The position numbers and the translations under genes are program-made. A DNA stretch of 62,473 nt, counting the filler, from Sluysia triapertura (Eukaryota): assembly GCA_046118255.1 (NCBI GenBank). It is 4 parts of 4 records of this genome, joined end to end, with 100 filler letters (N's around TTAATTAATTAA, not from the genome) between each part and the next. Parts side by side here need not be neighbours in the genome. Positions count along the whole stretch, not along the records: positions 1 to 17,701 come from JBJNIA010185834.1; 3 more parts are not named here. One strand, given 5' to 3'. Shown here in pieces: positions 5,070 to 10,363 of this stretch (the stretch's first letter is position 1; the number at the start of each line of letters is the position of its first letter). A model generated the notes under the pieces. It did no database searches and had not been told where the DNA came from. It was given only the letters and a program-made list of their open reading frames with translations.

Positions 5070-5851
5070 TGACATGGGAAAATATAATAAATGTTAAATT
5101 TAAGAAAACAAAAAACAAATGAAACTGTACATGAATTCGCATGCGCATTAAAAACCTTGCATATACAGCAAAAATTTCAGAAGATAAAAAAGAAATGATA
5201 TTAAATGATAAACTAAAAATATTTTACGCCTTGAATTGAGAACTTTCGTTATACTAATTGAAAATGTACCTTTTAAAGAAACAATTAAAAATTGAGAAAT
5301 ATAGAAAAATCCACTTATGATGACAAAGATAATGTTATTTATGTTAGTGACAACGAATATAAAAGTCCACAAGGAGTAATTTTAATAAAGATAAATATAA
5401 TGATTCTAATAATCGATATGATAATTATAATAATACTTCGAATAAGAATAATTCTGTAAATTATAATGAATATTATAGTAATAGAAATAATAGTAATTAT
5501 AGATATAACAGCCCGCGCAGAGGTATTTCTAATTATAGGGATAATCCAAGAAATTTTAATAATTATAGTGGAAACAATGAAATTGTTTCCAAGGGGGATT
5601 CCAAAATAACAAAGGAAGTGGAAACAACAATTATGGTGCAAGAAATTATGAACAAAGACAGCACTAAATACAAATTAAACAATCAAAACAATCACAGAAG
5701 CCGAAGCAAAAGTCCAAATAGATATAATGATAAGACTCAAACTAATGTAGAAGGAGAGATATGTTGTGATAATTGCGAAAAATACTGGCACTCTACAAGA
5801 AATTGCGGAAAGTTAAAACAAATACGTTTAGTTAGGATTTCTCTAAGATAA
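5070..5851 (+). pseudogene. gag: Retrotransposon gag (capsid-like segment, Asn-rich linker, CCHC zinc knuckle)
   Basis: RKQKTNETVHEFACALK near 5100-5155 resembles the gag Q..ESV.EY motif. CDNCEKYWHSTRNC (CX2CX4HX4C) at 5765-5806. Confidence 0.8.
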
Positions 5852-5886
5852 GGGACCTTCAACAACAAAGATACCAAAGGCCTAAT

Positions 5887-7680
5887 ATGAAAGTAGGGTT
5901 TAATGATAATAATAAAAACGAGAAAGGACAAATAAATTGTAATTATAGAAATCAAATAGATTACCACGAATATGAAGATCAATACCAATACAAGGATGAA
6001 TACCATGAAGAAGAAGAACCTAGAAGAAACAGAAAGAATAACAAGAAGGAACAAAGAAGAAAAGAATTTTGTAGCGATGAAGAAGATGACTACTCAAAAT
6101 TAATAACAGATGAAGAAAAGAATGCCATGCTAGAAGAATTTTATTCACTGGATTGGTTGTATTGTTAAAAATCGATTTAAGAATAAAACAGAGAAGTTTT
6201 TATGAGTTATATGCATGAACAGATATCGAGAATTTAAGAAAGGTAAGAAAATCGATTAACAATACAACCAATTCAAACAAGAATTCGGGAAATATTAAAT
6301 CAATCAATGGAAGAAAGAATCCAATAAATTAAAGAAATTAAAGATGTAATTTCAAATGAAGATATGAAACAACGAATTCAACAATTAATCGATAAATGGG
6401 AAGGTAAAACCCAAAAGATTAGTAAGGAGATATATTCAGAATAAGAAGAAAGTAATACCGCACCGAGTAGTACAGAAGAAGAAATAAATGATAAAGAAAT
6501 TGAATCTAAAATGGAATCCAGTAATACAGATGAAGAAAGAAAAGATAAAGATAACAAGGAGATATCAACGTTGTATCGGACATTGAAAATGTTATTAGTA
6601 AAGAAACAGATGATTAAGAATTACAAGCAGAAGAAATAGATATTGATATAAAAGAAGAATTATATTTTAGTGCCAGCGAAGACGTGGAAGAAGGAACCGA
6701 TAATTGTCTTGGCAAATGAAACATGGATACCCAGAATTATAAAGAGATCAGAAAGTTGAAGAATTTATATTAGATTTGGCTAATGGTTTAATAAAGGCTA
6801 AACATTTAAATGAAAGTTTGGACGAATTACTTAGATTAAATTTAAGTATACAAAATGGATACGACATTAAATTAATACTTGTTATATTAAGCAAAGAAGA
6901 TAACTTATATAAAAATAAAGCTAGAAAATTATTAAGAAAAATACGCCAAAATGAAAGAGAAAAGAATCCCAAAGACTTCATGAAATTATAAATGATATTA
7001 TAGACATTTCAATGGAACTCCCAATAACTTCAACAGTAAAAGATAATATAGAACTAATTAAATCAAATGATACTACTATAACCAATTATTCCCACATAAA
7101 TTTATAAATGATTATAGGTTGTCCATCAATGAATTGAAACCATAAAGAAACATTAATAGCCTCCACAATAATTATGGCTCATAGTAAATCTTCAGAAACT
7201 AATAAATTAGTAATAAATTTTTTGATAATTTGGCTAAAAATAAACCAATGATTGAGCCGCACTATGATAAAGTGACAAATGTTGACTTAGATAATTCCTC
7301 ACATTCATTACTAAAAGAATTACTTGAAGATGATTACAATGATAATGATAAAAAAATATATGGACAATAGTAAGAAGGAAATTATAGATATTACTAAAGA
7401 TAATGATGATATTACTGAAGAAAAACCTGATTGCATTATAGATTTAAATAAAAACCCTCATATCGAGGCAGAAAACAAGGAAACTAGCACATTTAAAAGA
7501 AAACCCGGTAGATCTAGAAAGAACAAAGACAATGATGAAACAATAACCCCAAATCCAATATATAGAAAACTTATTGATATAACGAAAATTATTAAAATAA
7601 TATAGACGAAGCGCTTAATACAAAAAGTATAATTTATGCATTGTTATCGAATAAGTTTACTAATTTAGACAAATTTATTA
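5887..7680 (+). pseudogene. Disrupted coding region of unknown function between gag and the Bcl-2-like domain (acidic, low complexity, AT-hook-like KRKPGRSRK)
   Basis: Purine-rich coding-like strand with ORF fragments 5887-6168, 6776-6991 and 7324-7605; KRKPGRSRK at 7495-7521. Confidence 0.5.
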
Positions 7681-7689
7681 TTAACAAAA

Positions 7690-7990
7690 TTATTACCCGA
7701 ACTTAAAGAATATAAAACTGCATTATCAAAGATAACTAAAATAATGGGAGAAAAGTATAAAAGTACGGATATACGTGAATATATAATTAATGGACAATAT
7801 AAAACCATTATTACAAAACAATGTTGGTTTTAATAAGGAGAGACTTAAAATTATAATAACCTACACAATATTTCAATGTACTAAAGCTGTGTTAATACAT
7901 AAAGAAAAAATAGACAGTATTTAAAATTTTATTGATAAGAAACTTGGTACCTGGATAAAGGAACATGGAGTATGGAAAATTATTATTAAA
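7690..7990 (+). pseudogene. Bcl-2-like domain, copy 1 (one frameshift, one stop)
   Basis: LLPELKEYKTALSKITKIMGEKY...QYKTIITKQ/[frameshift]VGFNKERLKIIITYTIFQC...FIDKKLGTWIKEHGVW; BH2-like W at 7952 and 7973. Confidence 0.65.
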
Positions 7991-8097
7991 GAAAAAGAAG
8001 AAAAGAGTAAGCTCAATGAACCACTTAATTTAATATCGAAATGGATTACTAAAATGGAAATTCAAATGAAATAATTCCACAATTTTGTATGTTAATA

Positions 8098-9980
8098 AAT
8101 AATATACTTTTTATAATTGTTCTATTAGCATTATTTGAAATTCTTAAAACAAATGCTTTTAAGATTTTGATTGTAGTCAACCACAAATTGGTAGAAAATT
8201 TTCACTATTGAATACTGAAGATTGTCCGAAACCAAGACCAAATAGAGTTAGAATAAAAGCTATGAAAATACTAAATATTTACCAAGAAGGAAATTTGATC
8301 ACAACTTTAGTCAGAGAATGTTCGGTTAAAAGGTATGTAGTCATGTAGTATTATGGACATCATAGCCATTCATCAATTATTGATATTTTTAATGTATTAA
8401 AACCATTTAAAATGCTACCCAATAATTGTCGATATGCTTTTGAAATTGGATGTACAAGTCTAAATAAGGGAGATAAACTTAAAATTAAAAATAATGAGAA
8501 AAAAATTTATAATGTAAGAACAGCAGGTAACGTATTATTAGAAGGTAGGTGTGAAAGAGGTTCAATAGAGTACGAAGGGAAAATTTATAATAATGTAGTA
8601 GTACAAGAAACATACGTCGTAAGTTTAAGATCTATCAATGAAAGTTTTGATTTAGGAAAAGAACTATGATGTCGCAACCATTTTGTAAAAGTGATTAAAT
8701 AATCTGTGATACTGGTGAATCAACATTAATATATGAATTAGAAATTTCAGTGTCCTTTAATATTCTTAAAACAAATTAAATTTAATCTAGTTTCCGGATT
8801 TATATATCAAGATGATGAATATTTGGCTGCAAAATAAATAAATAAAAAAAATTTACAAAGATAATTCAGATACACCACAAAGAAAAAGACTTAAAGAAGT
8901 AGAAACACCTACATTATTAATGGCAAATAAAGAAGACTTTGTTTCAAAAAGTCAGTAATTAGATGTGGACAAGAAATTGTAGAAACAAACTACCAAGGAA
9001 TCTACTTGGCTGAAAAGACAATAATTCAAGCAAAGAAAGGTGTAGACACAAAAAATTTGAAACTAAATACATATTTTAATAAGAAAATGGATTTTATTGC
9101 CATTTTAGGATTGATGTCACTAGAAAAAGTTTATCAAACAATGATAACTAGAGACTGTCAGTTAAATAAAGAAATATTAAGGACTAAATTGGTTGTAGCA
9201 ATTACTAACCCAGATCTAGTAGCACCATTACTTCCTTTAGAAGAAGGAATATTTGGCAGATTAATGGTTGAGGTACTATATACTTACAAATGTAAGAATG
9301 TTGAAGTACAAATTAGACTTTGAAAACTAATGTACCAATGAATTACCAGTTACGTATAAAAATCAACCATCTTATTTAGGACCGGTCACAAGAATAATTA
9401 TACCAACTAATAAGTTGAAACCGAAAACATTACACTGTTCTAATGTGATGGCACCAGAATATAAAGTTGATGATAATTTATGGATATCTTTAACTCATTG
9501 CAGTCAAGTCAAAACTCCAAAAATAATTGGATTAACGGAGTTAAAACCGAAATTAAAATTCTCAGCTACAAAGAATATATTCAAATGAAAGCATTCAAGC
9601 AGCTTACAATGAAATATTATTTCCTATCAAAAAAATTGTATACAAAGTAGAAAAGTATGGTAGAATAAATGTTGAATTACTTTTGGGACCAGATCATTTT
9701 AAGAAAGCTGCATATAATACCTTAAAACAAATATAGGGACGGTTTCTAGTATTAGGACAAGCATGTTCAGGATTAATAGGTATATACATAATAATTAAAG
9801 TTATTGCTCTTATAATATATAAAATATCAGGCGGAAACTAATAATAGGATTTATTCCATTTATTTAATCAACATACACATTCACAATTACGTGCTCTCAA
9901 AAAAGAAAGAAAACATTATCATTATAAGCAATTAAAATTGAACAAGTTAATTCAGATGAAATAAATGAAGAAAAATAAAA
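8098..9980 (+). pseudogene. env: Chuvirus (Jingchuvirales)-like envelope glycoprotein, copy 1, near full length with signal segment and C-terminal TM
   Basis: Signal NNILFIIVLLALFE; DCS...FSLLNTEDCP; RECSVKR...YYGHHSHSS; GRCERG; VYQTMITRDCQLNKEILRTKL...EVLYTYKC; CTNELPV..P.TRII; TM FLVLGQACSGLIGIYIIIKVIALII (~9740-9820). These match recalled chuvirus G motifs. Confidence 0.8.
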
Positions 9981-10049
9981 GTTACATCAATTTCCGCCTA
10001 TAAACCTAGTTTTATATGATGTGTTCAAAAAATAATTATAATAGTGCAA

Positions 10050-10363
10050 GAAGACCTAGGGTGGTAGATATGAAAGTAAACGGAAGAATGTTATCAAAAT
10101 TAGTAGTTACTAGAGCAGTAGCTTCTCTATTAAGTGAGTCAAAATTAACTGCAAAAGAACTTAACAATTTTGCCAAACAACATTCGTATCTAACAGGAGT
10201 AACAGGAGATGAAATCGAAATCCTTGGAGTATTAAAAATATTGTGTGAAATAGGGAAAAATAAAATCGAAAAAACATATAGGGTAATGAGAAAATGTCCA
10301 GAAGATATGCTTATTAGGAATAGATGTGTTATCACAATTAAAAGGAGTCTCCTTAGATTTTAA
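10050..10363 (+). pseudogene. pol: Retropepsin-type aspartic protease (catalytic DTGA degenerate to VTRA)
   Basis: VDMKVNGRMLSKLVVTRAVASLLS...LTGVTGDEIEILG...DMLIRNR. Confidence 0.75.

Follow-up and report, generated by a model that had tools for sequence, protein, structure and literature searches.

The window analysed here is a 62,473-nucleotide stretch, filler included, of the Sluysia triapertura assembly GCA_046118255.1, and it holds a retroelement in which an env-like glycoprotein lies between gag and the protease (PR). This raises the question of whether such an order is a genuine gag-Bcl2-env-pol architecture or a recombinant of related elements, the two options that a sequence-only reading of the locus had offered. 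Judged from this one locus and its relatives, we take it, with a probability of roughly 0.88, to be a compact and now decayed Ty3/gypsy LTR retrotransposon akin to the GAG-ENV-POL (Burro-like) elements of flatworms, with gag-[spacer]-Bcl-2-like-env-PR-dUTPase-like-RT-RH-IN as its native order. The element has this domain order, is collinear with intact relatives and draws its env and pol from one lineage.

Domain Architecture and State of the Element

The features recognized in and beside the element are as follows:

5070..5300, + strand, gag capsid remnant, weak and frameshifted (short match to P0003 aa 124-148; placed mainly by position)
5363..5851, + strand, nucleocapsid region rich in N/R/S, one CCHC knuckle at 5765-5806 (162-aa open frame, motif, P0003 alignment)
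5852..7600, + strand, acidic/low-complexity spacer (helical segment 6743-6988 may match the post-knuckle block of P0003 and P0004)
7600..7990, + strand, probable Bcl-2-like domain copy 1, frameshifted, 5′ edge approximate (nucleotide identity to copy 2; sub-threshold Pfam)
8089..9912, + strand, env copy 1 (signal-like segment 8089-8145, class III chuvirus-type/gB-like ectodomain, TM 9761-9817, short tail)
10016..10360, + strand, aspartic protease, catalytic DTG lost (P0003 and P0004 protease alignments; Pfam RVP E 0.14)
10419..10634, + strand, PR-RT linker, probably dUTPase-like (aligns with the P0007 PR-RT linker, 0/200 shuffles)
10816..11997, + strand, broken RT (YIDDI at 11305) and RNase H (about 11708-11899) (tblastn, Pfam, motif)
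12104..13138, + strand, integrase: zinc finger, core and C-terminal domain (Pfam, P0007 alignment)
13139..13447, + strand, probable Bcl-2-like domain copy 2, open frame, abutting the integrase end (sub-threshold Pfam, P0001 alignment, fold search)
13536..14556, + strand, env copy 2, restricted to the N-terminal 60% and without a TM anchor (PF24664 E 1.6e-19)
14517..15513, + strand, 3′ remnants (possible integrase-core fragment 14517-14714; DTG at 14961; Cys-rich ORF with hydrophobic end 15151-15513)

From the start of gag to the end of integrase the element spans 5070-13138 (8.1 kb), with the order gag/CCHC, spacer, Bcl-2-like domain, env, PR, a probably dUTPase-like linker, RT, RNase H and integrase. 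This copy is dead and broken, so a single ORF is not demonstrable across it. No assembly gap lies inside the element, the first N of the window being at 17702, and an A-rich skew runs unbroken over 5001-15000, including across the junction of integrase and second cassette. An LTR pair was not established: the one candidate repeat (1867-1949 versus 15518-15595) matches at 76% with a score of 61, attained by none of 40 shuffles, but one of 28 control alignments scored 63; the window holds no tRNA usable for a PBS comparison. The traits of Metaviridae seen here are the pol order PR-RT-RNase H-IN and an upstream gag with a CCHC knuckle, the capsid part of which is weak, and the RT has pairwise similarity to P0006, P0007 and P0008. 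As for the host, its MFSD6 gene, which the window includes, falls among flatworms with a support of 0.999, outside the parasitic clade, in a tree of one gene and 26 sequences that has no nematode, bryozoan or named triclad.

The gag Region, Spacer and Bcl-2-like Domains

The gag with a CCHC knuckle at 5765, as recognized in the sequence-only reading, is borne out by a motif scan, C-x2-C-x4-H-x4-C at 5765-5806 being its sole occurrence in the three + frames of 5000-15700; the nucleocapsid region around it aligns with P0003 aa 420-466 at a score reached by none of 100 shuffles. The capsid label is weaker than was then implied: the score of the remnant against P0003 was reached by 9 of 200 shuffles, and by 27 of 100 when tested more widely, and a capsid profile missed it. 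The roughly 1.8 kb that the same reading had placed between gag and the Bcl-2-like domain corresponds to acidic, helical sequence at 5852-7600, which has no Pfam match. A wide alignment of this spacer to P0003 and P0004 was not significant (22/60 and 5/60 shuffles), and a narrow test with a P0003+P0004 profile, picked after a by-eye likeness to these proteins, ranked 6779-6958 first of 1668 six-frame chunks, yet at an E-value of only 0.22. Its leads in the Atlas are helical/TPR-like and fall below the Atlas recognition level, above which the Atlas searches overall returned nothing.

The domain preceding env is probably Bcl-2-like. Its position is as the sequence-only reading had it, while the label is again weaker than implied, both copies lying under the Pfam cut-off: E 0.11 (13.5 bits) for copy 1 and E 0.0026 (18.7 bits) for copy 2. 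P0001 likewise has a weak Bcl-2 match directly before its env (12.7 bits), and none of the three reaches the curated cut-off of PF00452 (31.4 bits). The two copies share 66% nucleotide identity over 7687-7976. Against P0001, the score of copy 1 was reached by 3 of 100 shuffles, and that of copy 2, which aligns with P0001 aa 22-114 and apparently wants the first helix, by none of 100. When a model of copy 2 (pLDDT 58.8) was compared with 48,161 chains, Bcl-2-family members filled 10 of the 50 best rows (Z 4.4-5.7), among them MCL1 (Z 5.7, rmsd 3.9, 95 aligned), Bcl-xL, BAK, BOK and F1L, with nearly the whole model covered; unrelated chains topped the same search (Z 5.9-6.5), and a single-sequence model (pLDDT 53) had no match with Z ≥ 5. 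Sequence searches of the PDB returned mostly Bcl-2 chains at E 0.2-2. The sole match to copy 2 among 1.84 billion proteins, P0002, looks like a fragment of a Na/Ca exchanger and was taken as chance.

Envelope Copy 1 and Its Junction with the Protease

Monjiviricetes fusion glycoproteins (PF24664) match 8148-8654 at E 7.9e-30, and profiles of the env N- and C-termini match copy 1 at E 4e-11 and 5e-22, respectively. It is collinear with P0001, P0003, P0004, P0005 and P0007 at about 32–44% identity; in P0001, aa 165-718 run parallel to 8166-9826 at 35–44%. Since hydrophobicity further marks a signal-like segment from 8089 and a transmembrane segment from 9761, we take env copy 1 to be full length. 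Thus, the full glycoprotein noted earlier before the protease is there, but broken, with 10 stop symbols across three tblastn HSPs, some of them from crossing frameshifts. That it runs closely into the protease also holds, protease homology starting at 10016-10061, about 200–245 nt after the TM end. The motif scan of the three + frames found no second CCHC knuckle between env and protease, and no repeat was found there except the second Bcl2-env cassette. The TM-to-protease spacing is about 120 codons at the locus as compared to 147–390 in relatives, and the stretch from env tail to protease has no significant alignment to them (8, 14 and 32 of 200 shuffles).

Intact relatives carry the same arrangement. 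In all four close ENA protein clusters (P0001, P0003, P0004 and P0005/P0007) env lies 5′ of the protease in one ORF: P0003 comprises capsid, knuckle, env and PR; P0004 has three knuckles followed by env and PR; and P0007 (4844 aa) reads env-PR-RT-RH-IN. The Bcl-2-like domain was found in only one of the four, P0001. P0007 has no env after its integrase, the env and Bcl segments of the window scoring only 34–37 against its post-integrase part as opposed to 112–321 for env against its N-terminus. One search for relatives spanned proteins of 870–2769 aa, a range favoring fused over stand-alone env; a search of 229–2000 aa proteins, which recovered P0001 alone among 222 candidates, is a weak counterweight to that bias. 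No related loci emerged from JGI metagenome contigs, where P0001 had 137 pattern matches, or from IMG/VR, with 27 matches, none of them being confirmed. With intact single-ORF relatives and the literature discussed below both pointing to a genuine architecture, an origin of the env-protease junction by recombination or deletion is unlikely, and the recombinant option fits 13139-14556 only.

The pol Domains

The protease at 10016-10360, which has no DTG motif, aligns with those of P0003 and P0004 with scores of 85 and 80 (0/60 shuffles each). The linker that follows has no Pfam dUTPase match, and its dUTPase-like name is borrowed from PMC6431247. RT and RNase H match P0007 aa 2440-2877 (tblastn E 2e-48), with RNase H also recognized by Pfam RT_RNaseH (E 3e-8), and the integrase by Integrase_H2C2 (E 6.6e-12) and rve (E 2.8e-6). 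The integrase C-terminus is alignable right up to the junction at 13139 (0/200 shuffles). The integrase is 44–47% identical to P0007 as against 22–33% to P0006, the most distant match, which is a pol-env element; being far nearer the former, this pol belongs to the env-pol lineage.

The Second Bcl2-env Cassette

A second Bcl2-env cassette (13139-14556) opens almost directly after the integrase, a few codons away at most; its env is 71% identical to copy 1 in nucleotides and stops at about P0001 aa 479. Between the cassettes, 122 of 239 differences fall at third codon positions (265 codons, p about 1e-8), a purifying-selection pattern indicating that they diverged while functional. This cassette comes from a sister lineage, at about 70% nucleotide identity, is truncated, and was joined to the integrase end by recombination or deletion. 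The remnants 3′ of it (14517-15513) have no notable Pfam match. An integrase remnant at 14517-14714, which would place env 5′ of IN in cassette 2 too, was set aside on mixed results (0/60 shuffles against P0006, but 61/200 against P0007), and the DTG at 14961 was rejected as a second protease because its alignments were not significant (8/60 and 18/60; 39/200 and 198/200 shuffles).

The locus could also be read as a tandem of two canonical gag-pol-Bcl2-env elements, of which the first lost pol and the second its LTR and gag, so that env ahead of the protease would be a product of deletion and the post-integrase cassette would be native. Such a history would fit the opening of that cassette directly after the integrase, where env usually lies, as well as the different lineages of the cassettes and the pol-env order of the distant P0006. 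However, two deletions would have to recreate the very order of the intact relatives, the pol is of the env-pol lineage, P0007 is without an env after integrase, and it is cassette 2 that is truncated at both ends, while cassette 1 is complete and normally spaced from the protease. We accordingly regard it as very improbable.

Equally hard to sustain is an element that natively bore two envelopes (gag-Bcl2-env-pol-Bcl2-env) and later lost part of the second cassette. Selection-like divergence in both cassettes, the start of cassette 2 within a few codons of integrase and the A-rich skew carrying on over the junction would suit it, but cassette 2 apparently lacks the first Bcl-2 helix along with the C-terminal 40% of env including the anchor, and no relative with two envs was found or is mentioned in the portions of PMC6431247 and PMC13524379 that were covered. 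Misassembly, by which a collapsed or chimeric joining of related repeats in a short-read assembly made one or both junctions, is the most remote of these alternatives: the element is repetitive and the AT-rich assembly contains gaps, but cassettes only about 70% identical are too divergent for assembler confusion, the element is gap-free, and its first junction is a known natural order.

Comparison with Known Elements

While the native gag-env-pol reading stands, env upstream of pol is not the unknown layout that the initial reading took it for, being already described for the planarian Burro and for flatworm, nematode and bryozoan errantiviruses in the text covered of PMC6431247 and PMC13524379. 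Planarian Burro/GYPSM1 (Jurka 2007 and Grohme et al. 2018, as cited in the consulted part of Arkhipova & Yushenova 2019, PMC6431247) encodes a Gag with CCHC, a BCL2-like motif, env, PR, a dUTPase-like domain, RT, RH and IN, and its env matches mononegaviral fusion glycoproteins. In that account it shares with our element the succession BCL2-like motif, env and PR, with env between gag and pol, a probable flatworm host and the occurrence of decayed copies. In contrast, the Burro internal region reaches up to 25 kb with an ORF1 of about 4,900–5,100 aa, compared with 8.1 kb from gag to IN here; because it is compact and not giant, we do not file the element as Burro proper. Burro further has 2–3 CCHC knuckles, whereas one is seen here, where others could have decayed, and it carries MATH, BIR, ankyrin, Smc and Ubi2 domains. 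None of these (Ubi2/SUMO-like domains included) gave a Pfam match in the three + frames, and the element had no match to a ubiquitin-like profile derived from P0003/P0004, decay limiting the sensitivity of both searches.

GAG-ENV-POL errantiviruses, which are not one clade, are known from Platyhelminthes, Nematoda and Bryozoa (Chary & Hayashi, eLife 2026, PMC13524379, in the text and supplements covered). The features used in that work are found here: env comes after gag and is followed by pol within 2000 nt, and it is a class III chuvirus-like/gB-like env with a signal segment and a TM. Order and env class are identical to those of Smed_errantivirus_1-6 (HSV/gB-type, Platyhelminthes), of which 1-4 have a gag-pol of about 8.5–8.9 kb if the listed coordinates include 3-kb flanks; Smed env fragments in the supplement rows resemble the window env by eye, including cysteine spacing. 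The Smed elements are intact and mostly multicopy, whereas the window element is dead and accompanied by a second partial cassette. The non-canonical nematode ERVs (Sacco et al. 2022, as cited in the covered text of PMC13524379) are, by description only, also alike as metaviruses with a captured RNA-virus glycoprotein and swapped env/pol order, but have nematode hosts. The string 'Bcl' does not occur in the main text and seven supplements of PMC13524379 (figures and the ends of long cells excepted), nor does 'Burro' in the text searched; within the literature searched, largely by listings, a BCL2-like motif is tied to a retrotransposon in PMC6431247 only.

Proposed Polyprotein and Biological Significance

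Going by the relatives and the literature, the active element would have made one long polyprotein, in which the ectodomain of the class III fusogen would enter the ER lumen by way of the internal signal segment, transfer being halted at the TM segment. Gag and the Bcl-2-like domain would then stay in the cytosol ahead of the ectodomain, and PR-RT-IN behind it, the parts presumably being freed by signal peptidase and the element's protease. Because about 30–40 residues separate the Bcl-2-like domain from the env signal segment in P0001 as in the two copies of the window, we speculate that this segment, once cleaved, could serve as the membrane tail anchor of that domain, yielding a virus-style apoptosis inhibitor. 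A bolder proposal, that native Bcl2-env cassettes flank pol and record a transition between gag-env-pol and gag-pol-env, with the signal segment anchoring a death-blocking Bcl-2 and Bcl2-env acting as a mobile unit, has in our estimate only a slim chance of being correct.

By itself, the locus adds little beyond one further, dead copy of a design already described. It does suggest that the Bcl-2-like module is found in compact GAG-ENV-POL elements as well as in the giant Burro ones, being optional among relatives, and it links the Burro and errantivirus literatures, which do not overlap in the text searched. Should the Bcl-2-like domain be functional, the precursor that yields the fusogen of flatworm retrotransposons would also contain a virus-style apoptosis inhibitor, the idea of a retrotransposon-borne apoptosis inhibitor having been raised as an untested one in the covered part of the 2019 review (PMC6431247).

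Organization and decay of the element

The plus strand remains A-rich without a break across 5001–15000 and bears a decayed Ty3/gypsy-type retroelement whose domains are as follows.

5765–5806 (+): CCHC knuckle, the only one (motif)
8148–8654 (+): Monjiviricetes fusion glycoprotein, match 1 (Pfam, E 7.9e-30)
10016–10315 (+): protease homology (0/60 shuffles reach the score against each of two relatives)
between protease and RT: linker with homology to the one joining PR and RT in P0007, an intact related protein (0/200 shuffles)
motif at 11305 (+): RT with YIDDI (motif)
~11708–11899 (+): RNase H (Pfam)
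12110–12583 (+) by Pfam, extending to 13138: integrase
13530–14099 (+): Monjiviricetes fusion glycoprotein, match 2 (Pfam, E 1.6e-19)

The sequence-only reading had placed env between gag and protease, and this order is correct; the labels it gave to the capsid part of gag and to Bcl-2 are weaker. The first glycoprotein spans its full length, opening with a signal-like segment (8089) and reaching a TM segment (9761), and is collinear with aa 165–718 of the related protein P0001, yet it is interrupted by stops and frameshifts. Pol is likewise broken and the DTG of the protease is gone, so this copy is inactive; the longest open stretches in the element are 162, 132 and 130 codons. The gaps in the window begin only at 17702, 3′ of the element, and are artificial: three are stretches of N enclosing a 12-nt AT palindrome (17702–17801, 30243–30342, 46867–46966) and one is a plain N run (25569–25697).

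Upstream of the element, the stretches 638–940 (+) and 1076–1323 hold the N-terminal part of E3 UFM1-protein ligase 1 (Pfam E 8e-10) and, after it, a 120-bp tandem duplication; this gene copy appears truncated or in decay. Elsewhere, at 48382–48778 (+), there is another gypsy fragment, a short and decayed piece of RT/RNase H.

The position of env in intact relatives

A search with an env fragment from the window across 222 candidate proteins of 229–2000 aa recovered P0001 as the sole match, a single ORF with a weak Bcl-2 match (aa 52–113), env (aa 146–761) and then proteases. When the first 760 aa of P0001 were used against 4411 candidates of 870–2769 aa, a length range favouring fused envs, five matched: P0001 itself, P0003 (capsid-knuckle-env-protease), P0004 (three knuckles-env-protease), P0005 (env-protease) and the distant P0006, a bee element at 24% with the layout pol-env. 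P0007, which shares a 90% cluster with P0005, is a 4844-aa ORF reading env-PR-RT-RH-IN, and a search for env after its integrase found none. Because the window pol (10308–13164) is collinear with P0007 and its integrase is nearer to P0007 (44–47% identity) than to P0006 (22–33%), sequence comparison places the window env and pol in a lineage whose intact members put env before pol. The tail between env and protease aligns to relatives without significance. Between a real gag-Bcl2-env-pol architecture and a recombinant or deletion product, the two options offered earlier, the intact relatives P0001, P0003, P0004, P0005 and P0007 favour the former, and we consider the order gag-Bcl2-like-env-pol very probably native (probability roughly 0.88).

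The Bcl-2-like domain and the spacer

Independent weak Pfam Bcl-2 matches occur at the same position in the second cassette (18.7 bits), the first cassette (13.5) and P0001 (12.7), all three below the cut-off of 31.4 bits. The alignment of the second copy of the domain with P0001 beats all 100 shuffles. Searching the PDB by sequence brings up chains mostly of the Bcl-2 family (E 0.2–2), with unrelated chains first. For a model built from a 4-row alignment (pLDDT 58.8), Bcl-2-family chains are 10 of the best 50 structural matches and cover nearly the whole model (Z 4.4–5.7), with unrelated chains outranking them (Z 5.9–6.5). The domain before env is thus probably Bcl-2-like. Searches of P0003, P0004, P0005 and P0007 yielded no such domain, so it appears to be optional among related elements.

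The 1.8-kb spacer between the knuckle and this domain is acidic and of low complexity. Between their knuckles and env, P0003 (aa 519–724) and P0004 (aa 402–610) share a block (score 205) comprising a helical domain and then a part that by eye resembles ubiquitin; no Pfam name was found for the block. A profile of the helical block puts window 6779–6958 at the top of 1668 chunks, in the expected position but with an E of 0.22, making this match a lead only; the ubiquitin-like block was not detected in the window by profile search.

The second cassette and the 3′ end

A second version of the Bcl-2-like domain and of the N-terminal 60% of env occupies 13139–14556, with 66–71% nucleotide identity to the first cassette. 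As the differences concentrate at third codon positions (122/239 over 265 ungapped codons, p about 1e-8), the pattern of substitution indicates that the two cassettes diverged while functional, not via duplication inside a dead copy. The second cassette begins at the integrase end, apparently lacks the first Bcl-2 helix and stops short of the env anchor; on the simplest reading, it is a sister-lineage fragment joined by recombination or deletion.

Within the stretch that follows (14517–15513), the Cys-rich 120-aa ORF at 15151–15513 (+) ends in a hydrophobic segment and matches nothing notable in Pfam; it may have served the element as an accessory gene. A search for an LTR pair around the element established none. 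A direct repeat (1867–1949/15518–15595, 76% identical) flanks the whole element at a distance and might represent what is left of LTRs from related copies; a control block reached an equally high score. By eye, a TGG-starting stretch at 4716–4735, ~350 nt before gag, could be a candidate primer-binding site.

The host

The window is animal DNA with a GC content of ~25%. It carries one host gene of use for placement:

36804–38156 (-): MFSD6-like transporter (MFS) exon, 451 codons (Pfam, relatives, tree)

Its best named relatives are flatworm proteins (37–43% identity). In a FastTree phylogeny of 26 sequences, it is grouped with flatworms and separated from molluscs, annelids and arthropods with support 0.999, and lies outside the parasitic clade; this is a tree of one gene with long branches and includes no named triclad, nematode or bryozoan. 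On this phylogenetic placement, the host is likely a free-living flatworm.

Proposed working and relation to known elements

Judging from P0003, P0004, P0007 and the consulted parts of the account of Burro, the giant planarian gypsy elements (PMC6431247), the intact element would encode one polyprotein. In both copies and in P0001, a signal segment lies ~30–40 residues past the W-x-x-x-x-G-x-W that ends the Bcl-2-like domain. We take this motif to be BH2-like. By the general topology of membrane proteins with a signal and a TM segment, these segments would direct the ectodomain of the fusogen into the ER lumen, and Gag/Bcl-2-like and Pol would remain cytosolic, to be freed by cleavage. Because the signal segment sits where Bcl-2 proteins have their tail anchor, one may speculate that the Bcl-2-like domain could be turned into an apoptosis inhibitor anchored in the membrane.

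The intact relatives have several aspartic-protease-like domains, with three DTG motifs per ORF in P0001, 4–5 in P0004 and six in P0007, the last with seven Pfam gag-asp_proteas stretches, ankyrin and C2H2 domains, and two DTG motifs 3′ of the integrase. The consulted passages describing such elements make no mention of protease arrays.

According to the parts consulted of Chary & Hayashi 2026 (PMC13524379), elements of Nematoda, Bryozoa and Platyhelminthes are as a rule GAG-ENV-POL with a gB-type env, and Schmidtea has six such families of 1–215 copies. Against that description, the window element works alike and shares the tested features of the group, whereas it departs from Burro, as far as the passages on the latter go, in size and knuckle number and is therefore not filed there. 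The gag-env-pol design is one already described, and the window locus adds a new member to it, one that is dead and carries a further, truncated cassette.
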